A DNA stretch of 43,588 nucleotides from Eubacteriales bacterium (GTDB taxonomy: Bacteria; Bacillota; Clostridia; Oscillospirales; JAAYXM01): contig JAZSHZ010000315.1 in the NCBI GenBank assembly GCA_045533555.1, positions 1 through 43,588 of the forward strand, read 5' to 3'. Shown in pieces: positions 19,852 through 35,270 of this stretch. Each line of letters opens with the position of its first letter. Within the stretch, counting starts at the first letter, position 1. The translations under genes were made by a program, and so were the position numbers. A model generated the notes under the pieces. The model worked only from the letters and a program-made list of their open reading frames with translations, had not been told where the DNA came from and did not search any database.

Positions 19852-21666
19852 CTATTTCAGCTTGATGTTGCCGTTTTTGTCCTTTGTATATGACACCTTC
19901 AACGGAATTGTAGTTATTTCGTTGTCGCCATAGGAGGTAAACGAATGAAGAATAAAATCATCGCCAACGAAGGTGTGCGTATAGAAAAAGTCATAAGGAG
20001 CCCAAAAATCATCACATTGATATAAAACCTGACCGTTGAGGTCGGTGATTGTTATCAGGTCTACTGTTTCTTCTCCGGAAACCAGGGTATCCCAGATACA
20101 CAAATCAAGCTTTTGGGAATAATGCATTGTGTGTGGTATCCAACCGAACAACGGATTTGAGAGGAAAAACTCAGGCCCGAGCAATTCTTCGGATTCCTGC
20201 GTGGCAAGATCGATCGATCTCAGGGTTCCGTCGTTATATAAAAGCAAACGGTTTTCTTTGTCAAAAGCAACGCAATATTTTCCGATGAGCTTCTTGCTGA
20301 ACATATTTTCTCCTGTTTGCAGATCCCATACGGTAATTTCAGTGCAGTCGGCTGCGTTTTCGTTGCGCTTATATGCTTTCTCCCTGATAATATATTTGCC
20401 GTTCGAGCTGATTGTTTGAATGTCTTTATTTATATAAGGCATATAGCTTTCATAGATCTCTTCGCAGTCGTCTTCGGTCATAGCCCCCGTCAGCAGATCG
20501 AAGATTGCGGGAGCTCCGTCAAGCGTCCATGCAAGTATGGGAGCACCCGATGCTTTGATTGCAGGGTCAAATCCGCAGACTATGTCGGTTATATTCAACT
20601 CCGAAAAATTTGTTTCCGCAATTTCGCCGTCAGCTGTCAGTCGGATAATCCTGCTGTAACAACCGCCGTTCTTTTCATAGTCAAATACCATAAAGAATAT
20701 GTCATTTTCATCGATGATATTTATCTTGAGATTTTTAATACCGATGAAATACATAGGGATCGATTCCGTCTGCCCGAGTGAAAGGTCGATCCAATTTTCG
20801 CTTTTCCATTTCTGCTCTGCGATATCATAAATTTTCACCCTGCCATTGCTCAGAAAGTATACTATCTCGGAATCTTCGGTGCTGCATGCCCAGACAGAAT
20901 CAAAATCTGTTTCACCGAGGGCTATTTCTTCATTTGGGTGAATGAGCTTTCCGGTGCTCGTATCAATGCTTGAGAGGTTTTGGGTTTTTGTGTTTTTCAT
21001 GAAAAACATATTTCTTTTTGCGGAAAAGCCATTCAGATCACGGAAGGGATACATAAGGTTTTCTGCGTTGGAGAGATTGACGAACGGGATTTTTTGACAT
21101 GTGCTGTCATTATCCGTCACGAGGCTTCCGTATAGCCCGAAAAACAAGGCAACCGTCAGCGCCACTGCCGCAATTATGATCCCGGCCTTTTTTTTGAACA
21201 AACCGGGTCTCTTGCCGCTATGGCTTTCCGATTCTTCCGTTTCGGCAGAGACTTCGTTTTTTGAATATCCGCAGGCATCGGAAACGCTTTTTAAAAGCTT
21301 TTGGGTTTCGAGTGAAGATTCATCAAGCTGCTTTATTGCGATAATCTGATCCGAACTGACATAAAGTTCGAACTCGTCATTAAGAACCATATCCTCCAGT
21401 TTAACGGGAATAATCATTTTTTTATAGTTGATTGCCCGTTCGATTTCTTTCGGCACCCATGGAGAATTCTGGGCAGCGTCGGAAAGAAGCAGAATAACGC
21501 AGTCACATTTTTTAATTGCCGAGTTGATTACTTCAGCATATTTTTTTCCGACAGGAATATCGTTAGGAGCCATCCAGGAGGCTATTTTGTTTTTCTCAAG
21601 CAACCGCTTCGTGGAATCTGCCATTGATTGGTTTGCGGTGCTGTAGCTGATAAAAGCATATCCCAT
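19852..21666 (-). CDS. TIR-domain protein with a single TM helix and a large C-terminal WD40-like/propeller-like domain
   Basis: GGGAG RBS. Residues 2-115 are TIR_2-like (YAFISYS, CVILLLS, SPWVPKEIERA, IIPVKLE). KRPGLFKKK is followed by 23 hydrophobic residues (161-183). The C-terminal 420 aa carry recurring h-[YWF]-D-h-x-x-G/Q motifs (KIYDIAEQ, AIFDLLTG, TVWDLQTGE, CIWDTLVSGE). Confidence 0.8.
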   Translation of the reverse strand: MGYAFISYSTANQSMADSTKRLLEKNKIASWMAPNDIPVGKKYAEVINSAIKKCDCVILLLSDAAQNSPWVPKEIERAINYKKMIIPVKLEDMVLNDEFELYVSSDQIIAIKQLDESSLETQKLLKSVSDACGYSKNEVSAETEESESHSGKRPGLFKKKAGIIIAAVALTVALFFGLYGSLVTDNDSTCQKIPFVNLSNAENLMYPFRDLNGFSAKRNMFFMKNTKTQNLSSIDTSTGKLIHPNEEIALGETDFDSVWACSTEDSEIVYFLSNGRVKIYDIAEQKWKSENWIDLSLGQTESIPMYFIGIKNLKINIIDENDIFFMVFDYEKNGGCYSRIIRLTADGEIAETNFSELNITDIVCGFDPAIKASGAPILAWTLDGAPAIFDLLTGAMTEDDCEEIYESYMPYINKDIQTISSNGKYIIREKAYKRNENAADCTEITVWDLQTGENMFSKKLIGKYCVAFDKENRLLLYNDGTLRSIDLATQESEELLGPEFFLSNPLFGWIPHTMHYSQKLDLCIWDTLVSGEETVDLITITDLNGQVLYQCDDFWAPYDFFYTHTFVGDDFILHSFTSYGDNEITTIPLKVSYTKDKNGNIKLK

Positions 21667-21772: not shown

Positions 21773-22033
21773 TTATCTGCCGTTTATGAGCCAGTATGCA
21801 ACCTGATTCAAAACATCCTGGTCGGATATAGCGTTGTTATTGTTGTAGAGTTCATTCATCCACTGACTTGCATTGGCATATCCCGTCTGCGACAGTGATT
21901 GTCCTTGCGATGCAAAATAATTTTGCAAAGCCTGCATAAGATTGGCTTTTCTTGGGCTCATAACAAGCGTGCCGCCCTGGCCTCCGAAATTGACTTTGTA
22001 TTCATCCCCGATAAACTGAAAATTCATTTTCAT
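21773..22033 (-). CDS. Small hypothetical protein (86 aa), no recognisable family
   Basis: The track gives 22090. ATG 22033 (MKMNFQ...) is preceded by GAGAGGGG. Gln/Asn-rich, with no TM segment and no signal peptide. Confidence 0.5.
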   Translation of the reverse strand: MKMNFQFIGDEYKVNFGGQGGTLVMSPRKANLMQALQNYFASQGQSLSQTGYANASQWMNELYNNNNAISDQDVLNQVAYWLINGR

Positions 22034-22155
22034 GATGTTGACCCCTCTCTGTATTGATATCCTGATGTGCAAACTTGGATTATGTAGCAATTATGACACC
22101 TATTTGCGAAAAAGTCAATATATTTCCGGAGTTTTTGTATAAAAAATACAAAATG

Positions 22156-23099: not shown

Positions 23100-23948
23100 T
23101 CATCGCGGAAGCTCGATATCTCCGTTTTCACGAATCCAGTTGCGGAGCCAGATATCATTCTTCATACCCGGCGCCATAACCGCGTTGGTAACGAAAATCA
23201 TGCCCTCGATCGTGCCGTCAAGGAGCCATTTCTTTCCGCGCTCGCACTGGAATTTCATCTGCTCTGTCGTGAGCGGGAAGCTTCGGAAATAGTCGAAAAG
23301 ATAAGCGCCGAGATATATCTTCTTTCCGGGGAAGGTCTTTTTTGCCTCCTCGATAACCGAATCGAGCTTTTCAAGGTCGAGTGCATTCCAGGTATAGATT
23401 GCAACTCCGTCTATATCTTCATAAATGTCGCCGTCATCCTTCAATGCCTCGTGGGGATACCAGGTGACGAGAAGGTCCATATGGCGTGAGCAGGTGTCGA
23501 GCTTTTTGCGGATTCCGGAGACGAATTCCTTCGCCATTTTCGCGCGCTCATTTTCCGGATATGTCCAGAATTGACCGAGCGGGTCGTCCATATAGCAGCC
23601 GCAGAGATTCGGGTATTCTTCGTGCTTTGAGATAACATAGTCTTCTTCTCTGCCGTCGCGATATCCCGCGCTTCCCGTTGAGGACCACATAACGCGGTCG
23701 AGCGGGAGGAAGGAATAGAGATATTTATCCGCATACTGGGAGAAAGGAGATGGGATTCCGTCACAGCAGACCATGATCACGTTTGGAATATCGAGGAAGA
23801 GCGCAGCTTCCGCAGGCGTCATCGAGGAACCTGTGGAAGGGAAGTTGTTCGGATCGTCCTCCTTGCGATGGCGCACCCATCCGCCGACGTGTGTGTCGTT
23901 TTCGTGGGCAGGAACGCCGAAAAGCCAAAGTGCATCTCTCAGTTTCAT
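23100..23948 (-). CDS. Hypothetical cytoplasmic protein (282 aa)
   Basis: The track gives 24065. ATG 23948 has AAAGGAG upstream. No family recognised; possibly a TIM-barrel hydrolase-like protein, but that is a guess. Confidence 0.6.
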   Translation of the reverse strand: MKLRDALWLFGVPAHENDTHVGGWVRHRKEDDPNNFPSTGSSMTPAEAALFLDIPNVIMVCCDGIPSPFSQYADKYLYSFLPLDRVMWSSTGSAGYRDGREEDYVISKHEEYPNLCGCYMDDPLGQFWTYPENERAKMAKEFVSGIRKKLDTCSRHMDLLVTWYPHEALKDDGDIYEDIDGVAIYTWNALDLEKLDSVIEEAKKTFPGKKIYLGAYLFDYFRSFPLTTEQMKFQCERGKKWLLDGTIEGMIFVTNAVMAPGMKNDIWLRNWIRENGDIELPR

Positions 23949-24070
23949 ATGCTTTATCTCCTTTTGATTTATTATTAAATGATTATTTAACAGTATAGCA
24001 TATTCTCCCAAAAAAGAAAAGGAATTGTTTTCTGATAATGTTCTTTCGATTTGAATTTCTGCCAACAGTC

Positions 24071-24105
24071 AATAGAAAAGCGGGCCTGAAAAAATTCAAG
24101 CCCGC
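24071..24105 (-). terminator. Terminator following the displaced spoIVB 3' remnant
   Basis: Minus strand GCGGGC-ttgaattttttcag-GCCCGC followed by TTTTCTATT. Confidence 0.6.
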
Positions 24106-24110
24106 AAATT

Positions 24111-24232
24111 TCACTCCGCCGATTTGAGCATATTTTCTATAAAAATTGCATATCCTTTTGTCGGGTCGTTGACTAAAACGTGTGTTACAGCTCCGACGAG
24201 TTTTCCGTTCTGAATTATAGGAGAACCGCTCA
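24111..24232 (-). pseudogene. Orphan 3'-terminal fragment of spoIVB (encodes SGSPIIQNGKLVGAVTHVLVNDPTKGYAIFIENMLKSAE*)
   Basis: Co-linear with 26240-26361 at a constant offset of 2129. By hand alignment 108 of 122 nt are identical, including a 62-nt perfect run (24127-24188). There is no upstream spoIVB body. Confidence 0.85.
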
Positions 24233-24279
24233 CGAGTGTTGTCAATAGGGGACAACATTTTTTCAATTTTTGAAATCTT

Positions 24280-24342
24280 GAAGGAAATAAGCCCAAAATT
24301 GAAGGTAATAATGAGGGAAATGAAGGAAATCCTGACGGAAAT
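24280..24342 (+). repeat. Five direct 9-mers GANGGNAAT
   Basis: GAAGGAAAT 24280, GAAGGTAAT 24301, GAGGGAAAT 24313, GAAGGAAAT 24322, GACGGAAAT 24334. They lie just inside the left repeat of the cassette. Confidence 0.5.
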
Positions 24343-24446
24343 CTTATTTCTTTTTCAAATTTGTGTATTCTGTGCATTATCGGACTCCTGCATTTGTATG
24401 ATTGGAGTGCCACACTTTTGTAATAAAAGTTATACAATTTTTGTTA

Positions 24447-24473
24447 CAAAAAAGACAGGACTTTCATCCTGCC
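24447..24473 (-). terminator. Terminator of the two-gene cassette
   Basis: Minus strand GGCAGGA-tgaaag-TCCTGTC followed by TTTTTTG. Confidence 0.7.
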
Positions 24474-24489
24474 TTAATTGGTTTTGTGC

Positions 24490-24675
24490 TTAGTATGACT
24501 GTACTAACTCTAAAAATTCAACTGGCGTTGTAACAACGTCAATCGTACCTCCATTCTCATCAAAGAATTCAACCTCAAAGTATTTTCCATCGTACTCCAA
24601 AACGATAGTTCCGGTCGTACCAGCCGACAAATCGCTAAATTCACTCTTCAATCTTACAACATCTAATTCTTTCAT
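24490..24675 (-). CDS. Small 61-aa protein, DUF4926-like
   Basis: The pattern ELDVVRL...GTTGTIVLEYDGKYFEVEFFDENGGTIDVVT resembles DUF4926 from memory. It lies 21 nt downstream of the 396-aa gene and has a weak SD. Confidence 0.65.
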   Translation of the reverse strand: MKELDVVRLKSEFSDLSAGTTGTIVLEYDGKYFEVEFFDENGGTIDVVTTPVEFLELVQSY

Positions 24676-24696
24676 AGTATCAATCTTTCTTGTGGT

Positions 24697-25887
24697 TCAT
24701 ATAGCGGTTTTTAGTCCATAGAAGCTGAGCGCGTTTTTATTATAAAGCATAGTGACAGGTTTGTTTGATAAGTGGTTAATCATTCCGATATGTTCAGCAA
24801 TCGGAATAAGTCCACTATCCTTACACTGGATAAAGAATGCAAGAGTTTTTTTCAACTGCTTCTTTTCGGAATCGGTGATTGAATCACCCACACTGATTAA
24901 AAACTCGTCAACGGGACCATTTTTAATAACAGGAATTTTGCCGATGAAGTTACCAACCGAGCGAGAGACATCAGCAAATTTGTTAGCGGCTTGTGTTGTT
25001 ATTGCATCTTTCTTCAAGTCTTCAATCTTGTCGAAGCACTCTGTGTAAAGATTGCGGAACTTCATAGCGTGTCCTCTGATTTCGTCCTCTATCTTTGAAA
25101 GATACGCTTCTTGAAAATTTTTTGAGAGCATTATCTCCATATACTCAGATAATGCAAAAACGTGAAGTGCCAATTTGTAATGAACGAAGCGGTCGAGAAT
25201 TTGACCAATCTTGTAAGAGGCAGATTGTATCTTCAACAGATTTTTCTTGGCGGAGAGAAGTTCTTCGATTTGCTCAATGTAAGAACGCAAGTCCTTCATA
25301 GCGTTTCGCTTTATGTTCTTTACTTGGTTGAGATTGACCACGAGGCTCGCTTCATTCTCCCAATAGAATTTATATTCATCCATATAAGATGATAGTAAAT
25401 CATAGTCAGCGAGAAGTTGCGATTTCTTGTCTCGCTCAAGTATGCCAATAATTTCTTTCTGCCCGTCCTTGATGTCTTGTACTTGCTTAACTACCGCAAG
25501 AACAGCGACGGCAACCAATGTTGCTTTGAGACAAGCGGGACCGATAGCTTTATCAACGGGAATCCATCGCGCCTGCCCGGCAATACCGTTGTTCATAATC
25601 GTTCCTAACGCACCGGATCCGTCCTTAGCCATAGCAAGTGTGCCGGTAACTCCTTTAGGGAAAACACAACGATATAGTCCCTCTGCAGCAGGTGTAGCCA
25701 TCGTTTCTACGACCCCTGCAAAAGCCCCGCCGAGAGCTGCAATCTCTGTGAACGGAATTTTTGCAAGCGGTGAGGTTAAGTAATTGTCCTTAATTTCATC
25801 AAGAGCGTGTTCTACTTGTACGCTCGATCTCAAACTTTTACCCGATTCGGAAAGATCGTTCAAGACAAACAATTCGTTGTTATCCAT
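24697..25887 (-). CDS. Hypothetical 396-aa protein: Gly/Ala-rich N-terminal region, one hydrophobic segment, long helical C-terminal part
   Basis: AGGAGG RBS and its own promoter. Hydrophobic stretch ACLKATLVAVAVLAVVKQV. The remainder is Lys/Glu/Leu-rich and helical-looking. No family recognised. Confidence 0.75.
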   Translation of the reverse strand: MDNNELFVLNDLSESGKSLRSSVQVEHALDEIKDNYLTSPLAKIPFTEIAALGGAFAGVVETMATPAAEGLYRCVFPKGVTGTLAMAKDGSGALGTIMNNGIAGQARWIPVDKAIGPACLKATLVAVAVLAVVKQVQDIKDGQKEIIGILERDKKSQLLADYDLLSSYMDEYKFYWENEASLVVNLNQVKNIKRNAMKDLRSYIEQIEELLSAKKNLLKIQSASYKIGQILDRFVHYKLALHVFALSEYMEIMLSKNFQEAYLSKIEDEIRGHAMKFRNLYTECFDKIEDLKKDAITTQAANKFADVSRSVGNFIGKIPVIKNGPVDEFLISVGDSITDSEKKQLKKTLAFFIQCKDSGLIPIAEHIGMINHLSNKPVTMLYNKNALSFYGLKTAI

Positions 25888-25980
25888 TTGTGCATCCTCC
25901 TGTCTGGACTAAATTTGTTGGCATACGGCCACAATAGCCGCTGTAAACTTTGCAAGGCTTCGGCTTTGTTTAATGAAAGC

Positions 25981-26009
25981 ATTATAGCACAAATGTTAAT
26001 CTTTTACAA
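25981..26009 (-). promoter_or_regulatory. Promoter of the cassette
   Basis: Minus strand TTGTAA (26009-26004), 17-nt spacer ending in TGc, TATAAT (25986-25981). Confidence 0.55.
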
Positions 26010-26014
26010 TATTC

Positions 26015-26041
26015 AAGAAATGCTCACCCTGAGCATTTCTT
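26015..26041. repeat. Perfect 11-bp inverted repeat immediately upstream of the cassette -35 box
   Basis: AAGAAATGCTC-accct-GAGCATTTCTT. It could be an operator or the terminator of an older element. Confidence 0.5.
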
Positions 26042-26055
26042 CTGTTATTTGCTTT

Positions 26056-26100
26056 TCCGCCTCTGAGAGCATATTTTCAATAAAAATCCCGTATCATTTT
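26056..26100 (-). pseudogene. Third, degenerate copy of the spoIVB 3' end
   Basis: TCCGCCtctGAGAGCATATTTTCaATAAAAATcccgTATC aligns to 24115-24160 at roughly 36 of 46 positions. It contains a 1-nt deletion, so it is non-coding. Confidence 0.5.
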
Positions 26101-26202
26101 TTTAATTATAGTCAACAGGATATATCAAAATTGTTTTTTCTTTAAAATCATAAAAGAACAGCTGTAATTTATGTGTTTGCCGGTTAGTCTGAAATTAATG
26201 AC

Positions 26203-26235
26203 AAAAGCCCACACCGTCACATAGTATGGGCTTTT
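26203..26235 (-). terminator. Terminator after the intact spoIVB
   Basis: AAAAGCCCA...TGGGCTTTT stem with a 15-nt loop and a short T-run. Confidence 0.5.
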
Positions 26236-26239
26236 GTTG

Positions 26240-27232
26240 CTATCCTGCCGAGTTAAGCATATTTTCTATAAAAATTGCATATCCTTTTGTCGGGTCGTTG
26301 ACTAAAACGTGTGTTACCGCACCAACCAATTTACCATTCTGAATTATAGGAGAACCGCTCATTCCGCGGACTATGCCGCCCGTCTTTGCGAGCAGGCGCG
26401 GGTCGGTCGCGCGGATAAGCATATTTTTCGTCGCCTCGCCGTCATAATATATTGCCGTTATTTCGATTTCATATTCCTCGACGTCATCACCCTCGATGTT
26501 TGAAAGTATCGTTGCTTTGCCCCTTTTTATCTCTTCCTTCTTTGCAATGGGGATGCATTCGCTCTTTTCGATTTCCGCATTTTCGCCGAGCTTGCCGAAG
26601 ATTCCGCCCTCGGTGTTTTTCTCGATTATTCCGAGCGTATCCGAGCCTTTGAATTCTCCGACGAGCTCGCCCGGTGAGCCGCATTTGCCTTTTTTGACGG
26701 ATGAGACCTCGCTTTCGATCAGCTCTCCGTTTTCAATCGGGATGAGAAGACCCGTATCGGAATCGGAGATGCCGTGACCGAGCGCACCGTAGGTGCCGCT
26801 TTCCGCGTCAAGAAAAGTCATCGTCCCGATTCCCGCAAGTCTGTCGCGTATCCATATTCCGAGTGCATATTCGCCGTCTTCGTTTTTCTGCGGAGTGACG
26901 GTTTCTGTCTTCATCTTTCCGTCACGCATGAATTCGATTATGAGAGCCTTTCCGCCCGAGTTTTCAACCGCGCTCCGAAGCTCGGAGTTTGAATGGATCG
27001 GTGCGCCATCGACGCTCATTATGACGTCACCGGGCGCGAGTCCTGCCGCCCTTGCGGGGGTTGAAGCCGATCCTTCGCTCATATCGATGATGATTGCCCC
27101 GTCCGACCGAAGCCTGATTCCCGCCGTATGGCCGAGCGGGATGAGTGAGTCCGCGGCGCTCGCCGTTATTATAAAAGAAAAAATTATGATAACAGCGAGT
27201 ATAATTTTAGTTGATTTTTTCGCTTCTTGCAT
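26240..27232 (-). CDS. spoIVB: Stage IV sporulation protein B (S55 signal peptidase with PDZ domain)
   Basis: Signal anchor, PDZ (GLAPGDVIMSVDG), S55 core (GIGTMTF...YGALGH, MSGSPIIQNGKLVGAVTHV). AAGGAGG RBS. Confidence 0.9.
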   Translation of the reverse strand: MQEAKKSTKIILAVIIIFSFIITASAADSLIPLGHTAGIRLRSDGAIIIDMSEGSASTPARAAGLAPGDVIMSVDGAPIHSNSELRSAVENSGGKALIIEFMRDGKMKTETVTPQKNEDGEYALGIWIRDRLAGIGTMTFLDAESGTYGALGHGISDSDTGLLIPIENGELIESEVSSVKKGKCGSPGELVGEFKGSDTLGIIEKNTEGGIFGKLGENAEIEKSECIPIAKKEEIKRGKATILSNIEGDDVEEYEIEITAIYYDGEATKNMLIRATDPRLLAKTGGIVRGMSGSPIIQNGKLVGAVTHVLVNDPTKGYAIFIENMLNSAG

Positions 27233-27371: not shown

Positions 27372-29531
27372 TTACTGATTTTTTTCGTCGGAGATGCCGA
27401 GGCGATCTCTTTCCTGCGCGATGATCTGCGCGGCAACTGCGCTCTCCGCAAGCTCCTCCGCCTCTGTTGCAACGACGGATTCATCAGCGAATTTATCAAA
27501 AATTTCCTGTTTTGTTTTAAGAATTTCGAGAACTCTTTCATCCACGGAATCATCCGAGAGAAGCCTGAAGACCTCGACGTTGCGCGTCTGACCCATTCGG
27601 TAGGCGCGGGAGAGAGCCTGATTTTCGATGGACGGCTTTATCTGCGGCTCGCAGAAGATAACGACGCTTGCCGCCTGGATATTGAGACCCGTGCCGCCTG
27701 CCTGCACCTGTGAAACAAGAACACTGCCGACGGGAGCCGCCGTGAATTCATCGACAAGCTCCTGCCGTTTTGCAAGCGAGATATCGCCCGTAATCGGTCC
27801 GATGCAACGGTCACCGAGAAGCTCTGTGACGCGGCTGACCGTATTTCGGAAGAAGGAGAAGACGATGATTTTTCTTCCCTCCTCGCGCGCTTCATCGCAA
27901 AGCTCAAGAAGCCTTGCCGCTTTTTGCGATTTTCCGCTTCCTGCAATATTCCAGGATACCTGGCGCATTGCCATGAAGTTGCCTTCTCTGACAGCTTCGC
28001 GGTATATTGAAAGCTCCTCGGAATTCATTTCGCACCATTCCTCGGTCTCAATCAGCTCGGGAAGCTCCTTGAGAACCTCCTCGCGCGTTCTGCGGAGATA
28101 GACGGGAGCAAGAGTTCTTCGGAATTGCTCTGCCTTTGAGAGATATTTTATTTTCTCAAGCTCCGCGGCAACATCCGATTGCAGGCAGCTTACGAGGAAG
28201 CACATTTCCTCAACCTTGTTCTCAATCGGCGTGCCTGTCATGAAGAGGACTCTTTCGCTCTTGTTGTTGATTTCCATAAGCGCTTTCGTTCTGATGGCTT
28301 CGGGGTTTTTGACATAGTGCGCCTCGTCACAGACGAGCATATCGATCCTCTGCGCTTCGGGGAGGTCGAATTTGCTGATAGTTTCAAACGTCGTGACTGC
28401 GACACCGCCCGATGAAAGCCATGCATTGAGAGCGGTTTCGACGTCACCGTGAACCTTATGGGCGGTAAGCGGGGAGAACTTCGTGATTTCTCTGCACCAG
28501 TTGACGACGACGCTTGCGGGGCAGACAACCATAAAATGCGTCTTTCCTTCCGCCGCGAGGGAGACGAAGGCGGCGATTGCCTGCATTGTCTTTCCGAGAC
28601 CCATTTCATCGCCGAGAAGAGCTCTTTCCTGACATAGCGCATATCTGGTGCCGAATTCCTGATAGGAGCGGAGCGTTGCATTGAGCCCATCAAGCTTCAG
28701 TGGGAAGGAAGAAACCTTGAGAACAAGGTCTTCATCCATATTGCTTCCCGAAAGCGTTGCGGCATCAAGCTTTGTTCCGCCGAGCTTTTCAAGCTCCGCA
28801 TAATAGGCAGATGAGCGAAGCTCGAAATCGGAAAGCTTATCCTCGAAGGTTGCCGACGTAATTTCGCGCCATGTTTCGATAATATCTCTCGAGCCGTTTC
28901 CGAAATCGCCCGAATAGAGCTCATAGATAGCCTCGACTCCTGCCGCCGCGCGCTCCTTGGATGCGCGCGTTGCGAATAACCAGCTCAATCCGTTTTTCGA
29001 AGCCTTCGCGGAGGTGAGAGCCTCGTTGACGGATTTTCTGTATTGCATACTGAGCTTTTTTGCCTGCTCCGAAAGCGGCTTTGCTCCGATATATGTGTAT
29101 AACGCGCCGATAAGCTCCTTTGCTTCGGGTGTAAGATTATCGATGGTAAGGCGAAGACTCGTCGTTTTTTTGATTTCGCGAATCATCCTGTCCGCAATGC
29201 GCTTGATCTTCATTGCGGTCTCCTGACCTATGCCGGGAAGGGCATTTAGCCTGCTCAGAGTTACCTTCGATAAATCATAGAGCGTGTTTATGCCTGCGTT
29301 TTTGAGCGCGGAAACCCTTATGTTGCTTCCGACAGTGTTGAGCTCATCAACGCTGACGGATTTGAGAGTTTCGATCGCTTCGCGCTCTATCGCGGGGTTG
29401 ATTCTTTTTTTGACCTCCGCTTTTGCGCTTCCTTCGCTGAGCGCAATGGTCTGCAACTCGCGAAGATAGACCCTGAGCTCCTTGAATTCCGATTTTACCG
29501 ACGCAAAATCAGGTCTTGAAATTTTAGCCAT
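27372..29531 (-). CDS. SNF2-family DEAD/DEAH helicase with an N-terminal region of about 290 aa containing HhH motifs
   Basis: Motif I DEMGLGKT, motif II CDEAHYVKN, C-terminal QAGGTGLNI and QALSRAYRMGQ. N-terminal LNALPGIGQETAMKI is HhH-like. Confidence 0.85.
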   Translation of the reverse strand: MAKISRPDFASVKSEFKELRVYLRELQTIALSEGSAKAEVKKRINPAIEREAIETLKSVSVDELNTVGSNIRVSALKNAGINTLYDLSKVTLSRLNALPGIGQETAMKIKRIADRMIREIKKTTSLRLTIDNLTPEAKELIGALYTYIGAKPLSEQAKKLSMQYRKSVNEALTSAKASKNGLSWLFATRASKERAAAGVEAIYELYSGDFGNGSRDIIETWREITSATFEDKLSDFELRSSAYYAELEKLGGTKLDAATLSGSNMDEDLVLKVSSFPLKLDGLNATLRSYQEFGTRYALCQERALLGDEMGLGKTMQAIAAFVSLAAEGKTHFMVVCPASVVVNWCREITKFSPLTAHKVHGDVETALNAWLSSGGVAVTTFETISKFDLPEAQRIDMLVCDEAHYVKNPEAIRTKALMEINNKSERVLFMTGTPIENKVEEMCFLVSCLQSDVAAELEKIKYLSKAEQFRRTLAPVYLRRTREEVLKELPELIETEEWCEMNSEELSIYREAVREGNFMAMRQVSWNIAGSGKSQKAARLLELCDEAREEGRKIIVFSFFRNTVSRVTELLGDRCIGPITGDISLAKRQELVDEFTAAPVGSVLVSQVQAGGTGLNIQAASVVIFCEPQIKPSIENQALSRAYRMGQTRNVEVFRLLSDDSVDERVLEILKTKQEIFDKFADESVVATEAEELAESAVAAQIIAQERDRLGISDEKNQ

Positions 29532-29549: not shown

Positions 29550-31118
29550 TTATTTCAATTCAATATCATCAAACGGCAATTTGCCGCGCGCTTCGAGCTT
29601 GCCCGCGAGGACTTCGATTGCGTGCAGCTGTGATTCGGGGATGAGATAGCCGAAGATGACGCGCTTTATGTGAAGAAGATTCTTGAGTGCAAACGGATTT
29701 CCGAAATGCACCACCGCGGAAATCTTTCCCGAATAGATGAGAGCATTGAGGACGGATTCGCTTCTTCTTGTGAGAGAGTCCGTTCCGAGATAGCTCGTCG
29801 TGTCGCAATAGGTGACGAATATGACCTCGCGGTATTTCGTTGCCGCGTTGAGGACTCTTTCATGGTCATCCTTGCCCGAAAATTCGGGAATGAATTCAAG
29901 CCCCGAATTGGGAAATTCGCGGCGGATCTTTTCGCCGATTGCCTTGTGGCGATACCAGCTCTCAACTTCGATTTCGCCTGACCATCCGGGGCGGTTCTCC
30001 GTTGCTTCCATAACGATAAAGAGCTTATCCTCATCCTTTCCGCCGAGAGCGGGGGAGATTCCGTCATCGCAGACGGCGGTTATGCAATCGCGCGCGACGG
30101 AGCAGAGCGCCGCCTCGTCCTTTTTCGTAAACTCCGTCGGATTTTCGGGACGGCTTCCGACGAATTCCTGCGCACGGAGCACACGGCGGACGGCATTGTC
30201 AAGCTGCTCTTCGGAGAATGCGCCATCCTCGAAGTTTTTGCAGAGCATTTCGAATGCATCGCGGACGGGAGTCCTGTAGTTCGGGAGAATGATATCGTTT
30301 CCCGCATCGATCGCCATACCGTAGATATTCTCCTCGCCGAATTTCTGGAGGATGCCCATCATCGCGAAGGAGTCCGTGAAAATAACTCCGTCATAGCCGA
30401 GCTTTCTTATTATGCCGATGACTTTTTTCGAGAGTGAAGCGGGATATTGCGGGTCAATGTTGCGATAGACCGTGTGGTCGGTCATAATGCAAGGGAGAAG
30501 ATTCTTTTCCATAAGATAACGATATGGCGCAAGGTCGAAGGAAAGGAGATCCTCCTCCGTGACCTCAGAGAATCCCTCCGCCATATGCGTGTCAAACATA
30601 CTGTCGTGTCCGCCCGGATAATGCTTGCCCGTCCAGAGATAGTGGTTATCGCGGAAGACCTCGCAGATGACCTCCGCGCTTCTTGCGACCTTTTCCGGGT
30701 TATCGGAAATGCGCCTGTGGACGCGGCAGGGGCCGTCCGTGTGGAGAATATCGAGAACGGGGCCCCAGTTTCCGTTGAAGCCTGCCGCTTTTGCATCGCG
30801 CGCGATTCCCTTTGCGAATGCGCGGATATATTCCTCGTTGTTGCAGGCGGAGAGTGACATCAGCGGAATCTTCGGAAGCTCGCTTGTCGGAAAGCCCATT
30901 TCCGCGTCATTGAAGACGAGAATGGGATAATCCGCGGCGGCAAGTATCTTTTCCGTAATGTCGGGGCGGTGTGCCTGAAGCTGAACACAGCCGAGCTCAC
31001 GCCTTTTTATCATTCCGATAATATAGTCGAGGTTTTCGCCGTCAAGATTTCTTGCGCAGAAGACCATACCGAGCTTTTGGCGGAGTGTCAAATCTTCGGT
31101 TTTTAAAAGCATATTCAT
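29550..31118 (-). CDS. Glycoside hydrolase family 3 protein (NagZ-like beta-hexosaminidase/glucosidase), cytoplasmic
   Basis: GKHYPGGHD and FTDSFAM motifs. No signal peptide. The second Met (31112) has better SD spacing. Confidence 0.75.
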   Translation of the reverse strand: MNMLLKTEDLTLRQKLGMVFCARNLDGENLDYIIGMIKRRELGCVQLQAHRPDITEKILAAADYPILVFNDAEMGFPTSELPKIPLMSLSACNNEEYIRAFAKGIARDAKAAGFNGNWGPVLDILHTDGPCRVHRRISDNPEKVARSAEVICEVFRDNHYLWTGKHYPGGHDSMFDTHMAEGFSEVTEEDLLSFDLAPYRYLMEKNLLPCIMTDHTVYRNIDPQYPASLSKKVIGIIRKLGYDGVIFTDSFAMMGILQKFGEENIYGMAIDAGNDIILPNYRTPVRDAFEMLCKNFEDGAFSEEQLDNAVRRVLRAQEFVGSRPENPTEFTKKDEAALCSVARDCITAVCDDGISPALGGKDEDKLFIVMEATENRPGWSGEIEVESWYRHKAIGEKIRREFPNSGLEFIPEFSGKDDHERVLNAATKYREVIFVTYCDTTSYLGTDSLTRRSESVLNALIYSGKISAVVHFGNPFALKNLLHIKRVIFGYLIPESQLHAIEVLAGKLEARGKLPFDDIELK

Positions 31119-31124
31119 GTCTCC

Positions 31125-32489
31125 TTATATAACTTTTTTCTCAAGCCACTTGCCGTTTCGGAGTCGTACTGTTGAGAATGCGGCACAGATGAGATGGTTT
31201 GCACCCATTCCTATCCACATGCCGAGGACTCCTGTTTTGAGCAATATGGAAAAGACATATGAAAGAACAACGCGCCCCATAAACATTCCGATAAGGGATG
31301 CGCTGACGGCATATTTCGTGTCGCCGGATGCCCGGAATGATGAAAGCGGGATGAATGCGCGTGCATAGAATGTAGTCATCGTGAAGAGAGATGCATACAG
31401 AAGTTGTTTTGCACATTCTGAAAGCAGGCTCTCATCGAGACCATAGAGCGAGACCAATTGATAGCGGAAGATTATGAGAAGTGAGAAGAGCGCAATTGTT
31501 GCTATATTTGCATAGCGCATGAATTTTTTCGTATATATTTTTGCCTGCTCGGTTTCTCCTGCACCGATGCACTGCCCGACAACGGTCATAACAACGACCT
31601 GCAAGGCAGAAAGTATACTCCATGCGATTCCGCCTATCTTGCAGGTTATGGAGCATACCGTTACGGCGGCGGTGCCGATGGATGCAAGCATCATTGAGAT
31701 GAGAATCGAGCCAAACTGATTCAGGCCTCCTTCAATTCCGTTTGCGATGCCGATACCCGTGACTCTTTTCAGAATATCCTTTTCAAAGCGGATTTTCCAG
31801 AGTTTTGTGAGGTATATCGGAGATTCGCGGTTTCGAAGGACGAGAATGCCGAGTATGCAATAGACAACGCGTGAAAGAGTTGTTGAAATAGCGGCACCTG
31901 CAACACCCATGTCAAAGACATAGATGAAAATGGCGTTTCCGATCGCGTTGAGGATATTGACAGTACCTGCGATATAGAGAGCGAGCTTCATATCTGCCTG
32001 GGAGCGGAGCATCGTCGCGCAGACGTTTCCGACCGAATAGACGGGAAATCCCAGAAGGATCCAGAAGAAATATGTCTTGCAATGAGCGAAGACCAAGGGG
32101 TCAAGCTCGCCATAGACGAACTTTATGGCAGGTGACGTGAAGATGAGCAGAAGCGCCATGATGATTGCGGAATAGAGCGTTGAGATATAGAGCGTTTGCT
32201 TTGCCGCCTTTCGCGCGCTTTCAAAATCACCCCGACCGATATACTGCGCCGCCACGACTCCGCCGCCTGCAGCTATTGAATTCTGAATAAGCATGAAGAA
32301 GGAGAGAATCGTGTCCGCAAGGGAAACGGCGCTGACGGCTTCGCTTCCCGCTGTCGCAACCATGATCGAGTCGACGAGACCGACCGTCATAAAAAGAAGC
32401 GCATCGATAACGACCGGGATAGCAAGAGAGATAAGCTGGCCGTTTGAAAACATTGGATTTGAAATTTTCGGTGAAAGAGTCTTTGTCAT
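31125..32489 (-). CDS. MATE-family efflux transporter (paralog 1)
   Basis: 12-TM pattern. Shares the motifs AGSEAVSAVSL, DMGVAGAAISTTL, VGQCIGAG, ASGDTKYA with the two upstream genes. Confidence 0.85.
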   Translation of the reverse strand: MTKTLSPKISNPMFSNGQLISLAIPVVIDALLFMTVGLVDSIMVATAGSEAVSAVSLADTILSFFMLIQNSIAAGGGVVAAQYIGRGDFESARKAAKQTLYISTLYSAIIMALLLIFTSPAIKFVYGELDPLVFAHCKTYFFWILLGFPVYSVGNVCATMLRSQADMKLALYIAGTVNILNAIGNAIFIYVFDMGVAGAAISTTLSRVVYCILGILVLRNRESPIYLTKLWKIRFEKDILKRVTGIGIANGIEGGLNQFGSILISMMLASIGTAAVTVCSITCKIGGIAWSILSALQVVVMTVVGQCIGAGETEQAKIYTKKFMRYANIATIALFSLLIIFRYQLVSLYGLDESLLSECAKQLLYASLFTMTTFYARAFIPLSSFRASGDTKYAVSASLIGMFMGRVVLSYVFSILLKTGVLGMWIGMGANHLICAAFSTVRLRNGKWLEKKVI

Positions 32490-32540
32490 ATTTCCAAAAC
32501 CTCCGCAAAAGCCTTCCCCGCAAGGAGGAAGGCTTTAAGC

Positions 32541-33905
32541 TTATATAACCTTTTTGTTGAGCCATTTGCCGCTTCTGTAGCGGATGATATTGAATATAGT
32601 TCTGCAGAACCAGTCGCCCCACATACCTATCCAGATGCCGATGAGCCCCATATTGAAGAAGCGGCCGAGAAGATAGGAGAAGCCGACGCGGAAGGTGAAC
32701 ATACTTGCAACCGCGAGAATGACGGCATATTTCGTGTCGCCCGCGGCGCGGTATGCAGCAACGGGGACGAATGACCATGAATATACCGAGGCGATCGTCA
32801 GAAGCGCGCCCGCACCCGTTATATATGCCGAATACTCAAGCGCCTCCTCCGAGAAATCGAAGATGGAGACGAGCTGATGGCGTAGGATGAAGACGATTCC
32901 GAAGAGGACGACCGTGAGAATGATGCAGAAATTGCAGATTTTTTTCGTATACATCTTTGCCTGATCCTTCTCCTGCGCGCCCATACATTGACCGACGACC
33001 GTGAGAAGAACCGTTCCGAAGGCTCCGACGGTTGACCAGCCGATGTTGCAGAGCGTGTTTGCGACGGAGTGCGCCGCGATGGCAATCGTTCCGAAGGAAG
33101 CGACAAGGCTTGAAACGAGAAGCTTTCCCGCCTGGAAAAGCCCGTTCTCAAGTCCGTTTGCACCGCCGATTGTAAGAACTCTTTTGAGTATATCCCAATC
33201 GGGGCGGTATTTAAGCAGCCCTTTGAAGTGGACCGTGAGGCTTTTGTTGTGGAGAATGATGAGACCGCCGACCGCCCAGACGAATCTTGCCAAGGTCGTT
33301 GAAATGGCGGCGCCTGCAACGCCCATATCAAGACCGTAGATAAGAATGGCGTTGCCGATAACGTTGAGAATGTTTATCAAGCCCGCAAGGAAAAGCGCAA
33401 GCGTGCTCTTTGCCTGCGCGCGCAGGAGCGCTGCGGAGGATGAGCCTATCGCGAAGAAGGGATAGCCGAGAAGCGTCCAGAAGAAATAGGTCTTTGCGTT
33501 CTCGAAAACATCCGCCTCGATTTTTCCGAAGACGAGCGTTATGGACTGAGGAATAAAGCAGAGGAGAATCGCCATAAGGACTGCCGCAATCGCGGTTGAG
33601 GCGACGAGAAGCTGATTTGCGCTCTGCTTCGCCTTTTCTATATTGCCGCTTCCGATATATTGAGAGGTGACGACGACACCGCCCGTTGTGACCGCATTGA
33701 ATATGAGGATGAACATAAGGTTCAATGAGTCAACGAGCGAAATGCCCGAAACCGCGGCTTCGCCTGCGCTTGAGACCATTGCCGAGTCGACGATACCTGC
33801 AGCAATTGCGAGAAGCGCATCAAAGACTATCGGAAGGGCGAGAGCGACGAGCTGTCTGCCCGAAAACATAGGCTCGGATATTCTTGGTGTGTTTGTTTTG
33901 TTCAT
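32541..33905 (-). CDS. MATE-family efflux transporter (paralog 2)
   Basis: Same motif set as paralog 1. Ends in GKWLNKKVI. Confidence 0.85.
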   Translation of the reverse strand: MNKTNTPRISEPMFSGRQLVALALPIVFDALLAIAAGIVDSAMVSSAGEAAVSGISLVDSLNLMFILIFNAVTTGGVVVTSQYIGSGNIEKAKQSANQLLVASTAIAAVLMAILLCFIPQSITLVFGKIEADVFENAKTYFFWTLLGYPFFAIGSSSAALLRAQAKSTLALFLAGLINILNVIGNAILIYGLDMGVAGAAISTTLARFVWAVGGLIILHNKSLTVHFKGLLKYRPDWDILKRVLTIGGANGLENGLFQAGKLLVSSLVASFGTIAIAAHSVANTLCNIGWSTVGAFGTVLLTVVGQCMGAQEKDQAKMYTKKICNFCIILTVVLFGIVFILRHQLVSIFDFSEEALEYSAYITGAGALLTIASVYSWSFVPVAAYRAAGDTKYAVILAVASMFTFRVGFSYLLGRFFNMGLIGIWIGMWGDWFCRTIFNIIRYRSGKWLNKKVI

Positions 33906-33914
33906 AAAAATTAC

Positions 33915-35270
33915 CTATATAACTTTTTTCTTCATCCATTTACCGCGATGGAAATGTATTCTGTTTATTATGGAGCGCGAGAACCAGTCTGCCCACATAC
34001 CTATCCAGACGGCAAGAAGCCCCATATCGAAGAGATAGTTCAGGAGATATGAAAGCCCTACGCGGAAGGTAAACATCGTGCTTACCGCGAGAACAACGGC
34101 ATATTTCGTATCGCCTGCCGCGCGGAAGGTTGACATGGGAAGGAATGACCAGGAGTAGCCTGCTATGATTGTGAAAAGAGATGCCACTCCGGTATAGTAT
34201 GCGGCTTCGCGGAGAGCCTCCGCCTCAAAATCAAAGAGGAGGACAAGCTGATTCCGCAAGAGGAATATCGCGCCGAAAAGGAGGACCACGCCGACAGTTG
34301 CCGCCCGCATCATTTTCTTTGAATAAAGCTTTGCCTGATCGGGCTTTCCCGCACCCATACATTGACCGACAACGGGGAGAAGTGCCGTGGAGAATGCGCC
34401 GATGGTTGACCAGCCTATGTTGGTGATTGCGGAAGCAACGGAGTTTGCGGCGATGGCGATTGTTCCGAGCGAGGAAACAAGGCTTGCGACAAGGACCTTT
34501 CCCAGCTGGAAGAGACCTTGCTCGATACCGTTTCCTCCGCCGATTATGCAGACCCGCTTCATCATATCGCGGTCAATGGAGAATCTGCAAAGATTCTCAA
34601 AGCGAACCTTCATATGATGATCGTGCATTATCCATACTCCCGCAACTGAGAAAACCACGCGCGAAAGAGATGTGGATATAGCCGCGCCTGCAACTCCCAT
34701 ATCGAAGCCGTAGATAAGAATTGCATTTCCGATAACGTTCAAGATATTGTAGCCTGAGGTGAGGGAAACGGAAAGCTTGTTCTTGCCCATTGAGCGCATA
34801 AGCGCGGTGCATCCGTTTCCTACCGCGAGGAACGGATAGCCGAGCAATATATAGAAGAAATAGTCGCGCGCATTCCGAAAAACATCTTCTTCGATTCCGC
34901 CATATACGAGATTCAGTATCTGCGGAATGAAGCAGAGCAAAAGCGCAGTCATGGCAAGTGAAGTGAAAAGCAAAAGGTAAAAGACCTGATTTGCGGAGCG
35001 GTTCGCCTTCTGCATATCGCCTCTTCCGATGTATTGCGAGGTGACGACAACGCCGCCTATCGCAAGCGCGTTGAAAAGCGTGACGAAAAGGAGATTGAGA
35101 GAATCGACGAGCGATACGCCCGAAACTGCCGCCTCACCTGCACTCGATACCATGGCCGAATCGACGAGACCTGCCGCAATGACAAGAAGCGCATCGAGAA
35201 TAAGCGGTATCGTAAGGTTTACAAGATCGCGGTTTGTAAACATAGGTTTTTCGGAAAGAGTTTTATCCAT
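33915..35270 (-). CDS. MATE-family efflux transporter (paralog 3)
   Basis: Same motif set as paralog 1. There is a 9-nt gap to paralog 2. Confidence 0.85.
   Translation of the reverse strand: MDKTLSEKPMFTNRDLVNLTIPLILDALLVIAAGLVDSAMVSSAGEAAVSGVSLVDSLNLLFVTLFNALAIGGVVVTSQYIGRGDMQKANRSANQVFYLLLFTSLAMTALLLCFIPQILNLVYGGIEEDVFRNARDYFFYILLGYPFLAVGNGCTALMRSMGKNKLSVSLTSGYNILNVIGNAILIYGFDMGVAGAAISTSLSRVVFSVAGVWIMHDHHMKVRFENLCRFSIDRDMMKRVCIIGGGNGIEQGLFQLGKVLVASLVSSLGTIAIAANSVASAITNIGWSTIGAFSTALLPVVGQCMGAGKPDQAKLYSKKMMRAATVGVVLLFGAIFLLRNQLVLLFDFEAEALREAAYYTGVASLFTIIAGYSWSFLPMSTFRAAGDTKYAVVLAVSTMFTFRVGLSYLLNYLFDMGLLAVWIGMWADWFSRSIINRIHFHRGKWMKKKVI

Follow-up and report, generated by a model that had tools for sequence, protein, structure and literature searches.

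A probable decayed integrative element behind spoIVB and the separate histories of its two genes

We analysed a 43,588-nucleotide (nt) stretch of DNA from a Eubacteriales bacterium (contig JAZSHZ010000315.1, positions 1 to 43,588 of the forward strand; the whole stretch is called the window here), and in it a 2.1-kb segment behind spoIVB that carries a gene for a 396-amino-acid (aa) protein, called X here, and a gene for a 61-aa protein of the DUF4926 family. An earlier reading of this DNA, made from the sequence only, had taken the two as a co-evolved toxin/immunity or abortive-infection (Abi) module. That proposal does not hold for a pair that is not conserved elsewhere and whose junction bears a recombination breakpoint. 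We consider it likely, as one statement on structure and evolution, that the segment is the decayed remnant of an integrative element, similar to a cis-mobilizable element (CIME), holding both genes, and that X and DUF4926 have different evolutionary histories and were joined in it by chance recombination, with no co-evolution. The architecture is an ordinary one: a CIME-type remnant with an unusual target, an unusual recombinase set and an uncharacterised cargo family, and not a new two-gene system.

Results

Occurrence of the two genes

Gene X (24697..25887, minus strand) and the DUF4926 gene (24490..24675, minus strand) were identified by open reading frame (ORF) calling and the latter also by Pfam; both start with ATG, a spacer of 21 nt separates them, and DUF4926 is the last ORF of the unit. 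The contexts of X were surveyed at 36 loci with close homologues and in 5 more distant contexts, and those of DUF4926 at 23 loci that encode a protein 90-92% identical to the one in the window. DUF4926 was found downstream of X in none of the close loci (0/36) and in none of the distant contexts (0/5), and X was absent from every one of the DUF4926 loci (0/23), leaving the window as the only place among all these contexts where the pair is seen. The sequence-only reading had asked whether the two genes are always paired and had counted the opposite as a refutation of the module; in none of the other contexts surveyed are they paired.

The extent of DNA homology leads to the same view. Similarity to the DUF4926 loci begins at the DUF4926 start codon (24675; at 24687 in one locus, L060) and continues through the terminator and spacer to 24127, and because it starts at that codon, the junction between X and DUF4926 is a recombination breakpoint within the 21-nt spacer. 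X has no match in Pfam, NCBIfam, PADLOC or the PDB and the barrel predicted for DUF4926 is generic; neither protein could be placed with known toxins, antitoxins or immunity proteins by family or by fold.

The cassette at the spoIVB 3' end

The intact spoIVB gene occupies 26240-27232 on the minus strand. Its 3' end, codons 291-330 (26243..26361, minus strand; Peptidase_S55, E 2e-84), forms the attL-side copy of a direct repeat, and a terminator-like hairpin with a 15-bp stem follows directly after the stop codon (26201..26237, minus strand). The other copy is a displaced stretch of spoIVB, codons 291-329 (VSGSPIIQNG...ENMLKSA; 24117..24233, minus strand), which marks the right boundary of the cassette; over 115 nt the intact end and positions 24118-24232 are 92% identical. 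Abutting the displaced gene end is an element-end palindrome, TGTTGTC-N7-GACAACA (24237..24257, minus strand), which represents an attR-type arm and occurs once in the window against zero occurrences expected by chance. The terminator-like hairpin after the displaced fragment (24080..24105, minus strand) is probably the original spoIVB terminator. The cassette delimited in this way, 26240-24117, measures 2.1 kb and has two ORFs only. Repeat comparison further brought out a third, truncated copy of the spoIVB end, comprising its last 14 codons (26058..26100, minus strand), which together with about 30 nt matches the ends of the spoIVB fragments in two other loci (L062 and L063) and is probably the relic of an earlier, deleted cassette.

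Comparison with the loci L053-L075 and L079-L099 placed the window in a wider setting. In the window and the DUF4926 loci (20+), the displaced spoIVB fragments all begin at codon 291, just before the catalytic-serine motif SGSP, and the same conserved stretch of about 45 nt, which contains this perfect inverted repeat, immediately precedes every displaced fragment (20 loci), regardless of the cargo. This cargo consists of the DUF4926 operon, Fic, AIPR or a Schlafen/AlbA_2 (SLFN) ATPase, and further of AraC regulators with GH95, Imp-YgjV, pyruvate-formate-lyase (PFL) or AraA genes, which belong to sugar utilisation. Recombinase-less cassettes occur as tandem arrays in sister loci, and the spoIVB 3' end is a recombination hotspot at which such small cassettes accumulate in tandem.

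No serine recombinase was found in the window. A scan of IMG/VR with the spoIVB fragment revealed nine loci in which three tandem large serine recombinases stand directly before a variant of the palindrome and the fragment. These recombinases, of about 550, 568 and 530 aa, carry Resolvase, Recombinase and Zn_ribbon_recom domains (E 1e-16 to 1e-28) and are orthologous between loci at 44-53%; in L068, an autonomous element of this triplet type has accreted onto a DUF4926 cassette. An att-flanked segment that lacks a recombinase, at the very junction used by the triplet elements, is what we would expect of a CIME-like remnant, and the window cassette itself is presumed to be mobile. An exact-sequence look-up of the window SpoIVB, aimed at an empty site, found it not on record, and no report of integrase-type integration at a spoIVB attB was found in the literature.

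The operon to which DUF4926 usually belongs

The 61-aa protein matches PF16277 above the gathering threshold (E 1.5e-12; 47.2 bits, cut-off 29.1), with residues 3-53 aligned to positions 1-53 of a model of 57, and the family named in the sequence-only reading was the correct one. Its predicted structure is a five-strand SH3/KOW-like barrel (pLDDT, the predicted local distance difference test, 97), which as modelled is a generic binding fold and not a recognisable antitoxin. The protein gave no tblastn match in phages or plasmids and nothing relevant in a sequence search of the PDB, and in the literature found, DUF4417 and DUF4926 appear only in phage genome annotations, as phage-associated domains without assigned function.

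Many relatives of DUF4926 share 90-92% identity with the window protein. The same 107-aa gene lies 4 nt upstream of DUF4926 in 22 of the 23 loci, normally with a 118-aa gene and a DUF4417 gene ahead of it; DUF4926 is the last gene of a phage-like DUF4417-118aa-107aa-DUF4926 operon, which is the usual cargo at the spoIVB site. At the remaining locus, L060, an AIPR gene (PF10592, E 2e-31; L060:1-1266) is found 10 nt upstream of a 92% identical DUF4926, and the 12 nt before the DUF4926 start codon are similar in L060 and in the window. The ratio of nonsynonymous to synonymous substitution (dN/dS) of the window copy against its relatives is raised (0.2-0.3 versus 0.03-0.05). We considered and rejected that this copy is decaying: the residues in which it differs are the consensus of the wider family, and all invariant positions are intact.

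Genomic contexts of protein X

In 28 of the 36 close loci (L001-L005, L007, L010-L026, L028-L032) a YolD-like gene of 141-149 aa lies about 20 nt downstream of X, its YolD match (E 1e-4) being under the Pfam threshold. A Y-family (IMS) polymerase directly precedes X in 21 of the 36, all of them among the YolD-bearing loci, and within this clade of 81-87% identity a type I restriction-modification (RM) system often follows. The neighbours of X in the remaining close loci include a 409-aa or a 220-aa gene. L006 has X with a 409-aa gene adjoining a serine recombinase, L008 has X with no such neighbour, and these two loci and the window lack both the polymerase and the YolD-like gene. In L023, the gap between polymerase and YolD-like gene that holds X contains an additional Exo_endo_phos gene.

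Homologues further removed (31-54% identity) occur singly, in unrelated settings. One stands in an island with Dnd-associated and GmrSD genes, another among genes without assigned function, and a further one in an integrative and conjugative element (ICE), after an LHH toxin and a SUKH_5 immunity gene and before topoisomerase III, ArdC and a relaxase. Adjacent IMS and YolD-like genes are absent from the window and from all of the distant homologues.

X is also set apart from its neighbours by conservation, identity being 84% for X, 58% for the polymerase and 46-49% for the YolD-like gene, and the DNA similarity between the window and the close loci comprises the X coding sequence and at most 66 nt of leader. 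An alignment of seven loci (the window, L001, L006, L007, L012, L025 and L027) delimits in this leader a conserved element of about 30 nt (TTGCAAAGTTTACAGCGGCTATTGTGGCCG; 25920..25953, minus strand), with the consensus CGCGAAAaTTACAAnGGCTATTaTGGyC, which in each of the seven precedes the X start codon by 35-65 nt, with unrelated sequence further upstream. It is at this element that DNA similarity to L007, L025, L027 and L033 begins. In the window it sits downstream of the predicted promoter, and could serve as an operator, as a leader or as the native -10 region of the gene. A LexA (Cheo) box and a standard sigma-70 promoter were considered as well; judged by eye, the element fits neither. Homology confined to the coding sequence, a leader of its own and conservation above that of its neighbours together indicate that X behaves as a self-contained single-gene unit. 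As a rule it stands alone, in the accessory regions of ICEs, prophage-like elements and islands of Clostridia.

Family and predicted structure of protein X

The sequence-only reading had been unable to assign the large protein to a family, and this was borne out in every library searched. X gave no match beyond noise in Pfam, NCBIfam, PADLOC and PHROGs, and neither did 124 relatives and the family consensus in the same four libraries; the best scores in PADLOC-DB 2.0, AriA at E 3e-5 for the X consensus and BnzB at E 2e-4 for two of the 124 members, are noise of the coiled-coil type. PDB searches with the X sequence and with a profile of the 124 relatives returned nothing at E up to 10. In the phage collection tblastn found only two weak fragments of X, in unannotated 'Bacteriophage sp.' contigs; the plasmid collection gave no match, and a scan of IMG/VR no relative.

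The family itself is large. An exhaustive search (E up to 1e-3) yielded 881 clusters at 50% identity, whose members nearly all measure 380-410 aa and align end to end. X has hundreds of relatives of near-identical length at 80-87% identity in human-gut and rumen metagenomes, the named sources being metagenome-assembled genomes of Faecousia, Ruminococcus and Lachnospiraceae, in which the annotation is always 'hypothetical protein'. Between the window and four relatives, the proportion of nonsynonymous differences (pN) was 0.08-0.10 and that of synonymous differences (pS) 0.77-0.88, with synonymous sites saturated. A low pN at saturated pS means that the high protein identity is due to constraint rather than to recent spread; X is ancient, functional and under strong purifying selection.

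The AlphaFold2 model of X, built on the 124-sequence alignment (pLDDT 77; predicted template-modelling score, pTM, 0.72), has three predicted parts, namely a small domain of beta structure (residues 42-110), long helices packed in a bundle (118-375; one helix has 55 residues) and a C-terminal hairpin. Structure comparison of a model by HHpred and Foldseek had been proposed as a check in the sequence-only reading; its Foldseek part, carried out on this model, gave no significant match to a fold in the PDB, the lowest E being 0.17 and template-modelling (TM) scores reaching at most 0.19. The top rows, none significant, are generic helical proteins, including AhlC, Vipp1 and SH3BP5, and no significant similarity to alpha pore-forming toxins of the ClyA/Hbl/AhlC type was seen either (best E 0.17-0.2, TM <=0.19). 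Foldseek against BFVD returned a single uncharacterised homologue from a gut Siphoviridae. The X family is thus without a relative in Pfam, NCBIfam, PADLOC, PHROGs or the PDB and without a fold match.

X had also been described as membrane-associated. The hydrophobic helix named in the sequence-only reading is present, but membrane association is unproven: the purely hydrophobic run spans 12-15 residues (family consensus at the aligned position PIDPATLFMAVALASIEKK), whereas about 18-20 conserved hydrophobic residues were taken as the criterion for spanning a bilayer. The Kyte-Doolittle mean over 19 residues reaches 1.6 in 50 of the 124 family members, around a conserved run of about 12 residues. 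In the window X the corresponding maximum is 2.2, in a segment that holds one lysine and a helix predicted with pLDDT 62-71.

Signals and composition of the two-gene unit

Everything that had been read from the DNA letters was confirmed. The two ORFs 21 nt apart, a ribosome-binding site AGGAGG 8 nt before the X start codon (25896..25901, minus strand) and an intrinsic-terminator-like hairpin with T-run, 15 nt past the DUF4926 ORF and closing the bicistronic unit (24452..24475, minus strand), were each located as described, and three peptides quoted from the large protein were all found in its translation. The low G+C content was likewise reproduced, with exactly 24 G+C in 25201-25260 and 39% in the insert against 45-52% in the flanks, and the description as cargo of an insertion, a promoter-to-terminator unit of foreign composition, is supported.

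The sigma-70-type site TTGTAA, 17 nt, TGcTATAAT (25981..26009, minus strand) is present, with 10/12 matches and a TG extension, and as an extended -10 site it scores highest of six promoter-like sites in the region; but six is no excess over the 5.4 such sites expected from shuffling. A promoter for the X-DUF4926 unit at 26009-25981 is plausible, on the strength of the site itself and unproven by the count. An Rfam scan of 23800-26500 gave sub-threshold chance matches only, to Thr_leader (34 bits, gathering score 55) and L20_leader. The Thr_leader match (26131-26240, plus strand) overlaps, on the other strand, the hairpin that would terminate spoIVB, and is most likely due to chance.

Other genes in the window

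Three genes downstream of the cassette, a 604-aa TIR-domain protein is encoded (19852-21666, minus strand; TIR_2 E 2e-18, ThsB_TIR E 2e-8), which may represent a further defence-type gene in a variable region. Directly upstream of spoIVB is a SNF2-family helicase of 719 aa (27372-29531, minus strand) that matches the PADLOC models DpdE (E 1e-138) and DrmD (E 2e-128). The gene upstream of this helicase, for a family 3 glycosyl hydrolase (GH3; 29550-31118), was the only adjacent gene scanned and gave no PADLOC match. At 31125-35270 (minus strand) three efflux paralogues of the MatE family, each of 451-454 aa, lie in tandem. Past the displaced spoIVB fragment, a 321-aa ORF (23100-24065, minus strand) had no match in Pfam, NCBIfam, PADLOC or PHROGs, and a 105-aa ORF (21773-22090, minus strand) had none in Pfam or NCBIfam.

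Discussion

The observations can be joined in a simple model. Elements of this kind would insert at codon 291 of spoIVB, supply a replacement end of 39 codons and leave the original end displaced behind the palindrome, and intact relatives would do so by means of their three tandem large serine recombinases. The ancestral cassette in the window may have carried the DUF4417-118aa-107aa-DUF4926 operon, the upstream part of which was later swapped for X, with the arm from DUF4926 to the displaced fragment on one side and spoIVB itself on the other providing the homology for cassette replacement; in L060, AIPR would have come in by a parallel exchange of the same upstream part. DUF4926 in the window would then be the orphaned last gene of a four-gene operon, transcribed together with X as a bicistronic message from one sigma-70-type promoter, and X would presumably act alone, with no need of the small protein.

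This model has to be weighed against two explanations that assign a role to DUF4926. A dedicated toxin/immunity or Abi system, in which a membrane-active X is neutralised or regulated by the small protein, would account for the 21-nt spacing, the single promoter and terminator and the hydrophobic helix in X, and a foreign cassette in a hotspot with defence-like cargo would be a fitting place for it. We nevertheless regard such a system as highly improbable: the adjacency is confined to the window among 36 + 5 contexts of X and 23 of DUF4926, the homology breakpoint falls in the spacer, X is solo across a family of 881 clusters, the DUF4926 barrel is of a generic SH3/KOW-like kind, and neither protein matches a PADLOC model. 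Alternatively, DUF4926 might be a generic small adaptor or regulator, kept at the recombinase-proximal end to serve whatever gene lies upstream. Three different genes (the 107-aa gene, AIPR and X) do stand directly next to one and the same strongly conserved DUF4926 gene, the window and L060 have in common the 12 nt ahead of its start, and its invariant residues are all intact in the window. However, the other loci, with the same 107-aa partner at a 4-nt gap in 22 of the 23, speak for a specific operon, and since the homology arm along which cassettes would be replaced starts with DUF4926 and extends to the spoIVB fragment, the retention of DUF4926 is explained by that arm alone and needs no function. 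An adaptor of this type therefore seems quite improbable to us.

A third explanation concerns X itself, which could be part of an SOS/translesion operon of mobile elements, composed of Y-family polymerase, X and YolD-like gene, with the window copy as a stray. The clade of 81-87% identity gives this idea some substance, with the polymerase upstream in 21 loci and the YolD-like gene about 20 nt downstream in 28, and the trio is retained even between element lineages in which the polymerases share no more than 58% identity. Yet homologues at 31-54% identity have neither polymerase nor YolD nearby, L006, L008 and the window lack both within the close clade, and the YolD match is itself below the Pfam threshold. 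The extra nuclease gene in L023 makes the gap that holds X look like a cargo slot, and X is far better conserved than the genes flanking it (84% versus 58% and 46-49%) and has its own conserved leader. We judge membership in a translesion operon to be unlikely.

Several points weigh against our own account of a remnant cassette with chance-joined genes and a solo X, and against the role considered for X below. The 23 DUF4926 loci encode three protein variants and are phylogenetically narrow, and neither an empty site nor an excised circle of the cassette was found among the sequences searched. Because the window and L060 have the same 12 nt before the start codon, DUF4926 could be a deliberately retained partner of any upstream gene. 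One distant homologue of X is chromosomal, located after FtsW and a penicillin-binding protein. The apparent association of X with defence genes was read from only about seven distinct contexts, and no homology or fold match in the libraries searched points to an activity of X.

With these points in mind, we tentatively propose that X serves an accessory conflict function of mobile elements, be it defence, abortive infection or exclusion; this is possible, and short of probable. Variable defence cargo occurs in mobile-element hotspots. Type I RM systems adjoin X in close loci, X and AIPR (L060) occupy the same slot directly upstream of DUF4926, and about four of seven distinct X contexts, too small a sample for a firm association, lie near RM, Dnd/GmrSD, toxin-immunity, TIR or AIPR genes. 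Sister cassettes with Fic and a Schlafen-like ATPase as cargo, and the TIR-domain protein encoded three genes downstream in the window, are further hints of this kind. How X might act is a matter of speculation: the helical bundle could expose its conserved short hydrophobic helix upon a trigger, and insertion of this helix into a membrane is equally speculative. Somewhat more doubtful still is the broader proposition that X founds a family of single-gene conflict proteins, with a fold unlike solved structures and spread via ICEs and spoIVB-type cassette slots, and that the hotspot works as a system of exchangeable cassettes serviced in trans by the elements with serine-recombinase triplets.

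As a proposed two-gene system, the finding dissolves, which spares a toxin/antitoxin experiment of probably little informative value. X, in turn, emerges as a well-defined experimental candidate, belonging to a large family that is conserved over its full length, constrained and found repeatedly on mobile elements of gut and rumen Clostridia. The cassette hotspot at the spoIVB 3' end, for its part, offers itself for the search for new accessory and defence genes of organisms that are difficult to grow.

Comparison with known systems

CIMEs formed through decay, along with elements that accrete in tandem at a target gene's 3' end, have been described for ICESt1-related streptococcal islands and for integrative and mobilizable elements (PMC5704250). 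The window cassette resembles them in having lost its recombination genes, its sister loci are tandem, and in one locus an intact element has accreted. It differs from the CIMEs of that study in its target, codon 291 of spoIVB at the catalytic-serine motif, in a repeat that is a 117-nt coding segment, and in the related autonomous elements, which use three large serine recombinases instead of a tyrosine integrase. Triplets of serine integrases are known from streptococcal ICEs, which disrupt their targets and leave repeats of 2-8 bp (PMC4701971). The relatives of the spoIVB cassette similarly carry three tandem large serine recombinases, all in one orientation, at the end of the element beside the target; in contrast to the streptococcal ICEs, however, they bring a replacement end of 39 codons, leaving spoIVB intact and giving rise to a 117-nt repeat.

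With regard to the proteins, the 61-aa product matches the whole PF16277 model, a family without assigned function. X shares with AIPR (PF10592), which acts as a single-gene Abi protein, the slot upstream of DUF4926, and elsewhere stands beside RM, Dnd/GmrSD and toxin-immunity genes, but neither by sequence nor by profile does it resemble AIPR or any of the PADLOC models. Its likeness to AhlC, Hbl-B, ClyA and Vipp1/PspA lies in long bundled helices and a single hydrophobic segment that is conserved, and at E >=0.17 and TM <=0.19 this constitutes a general helical resemblance and not a relationship.

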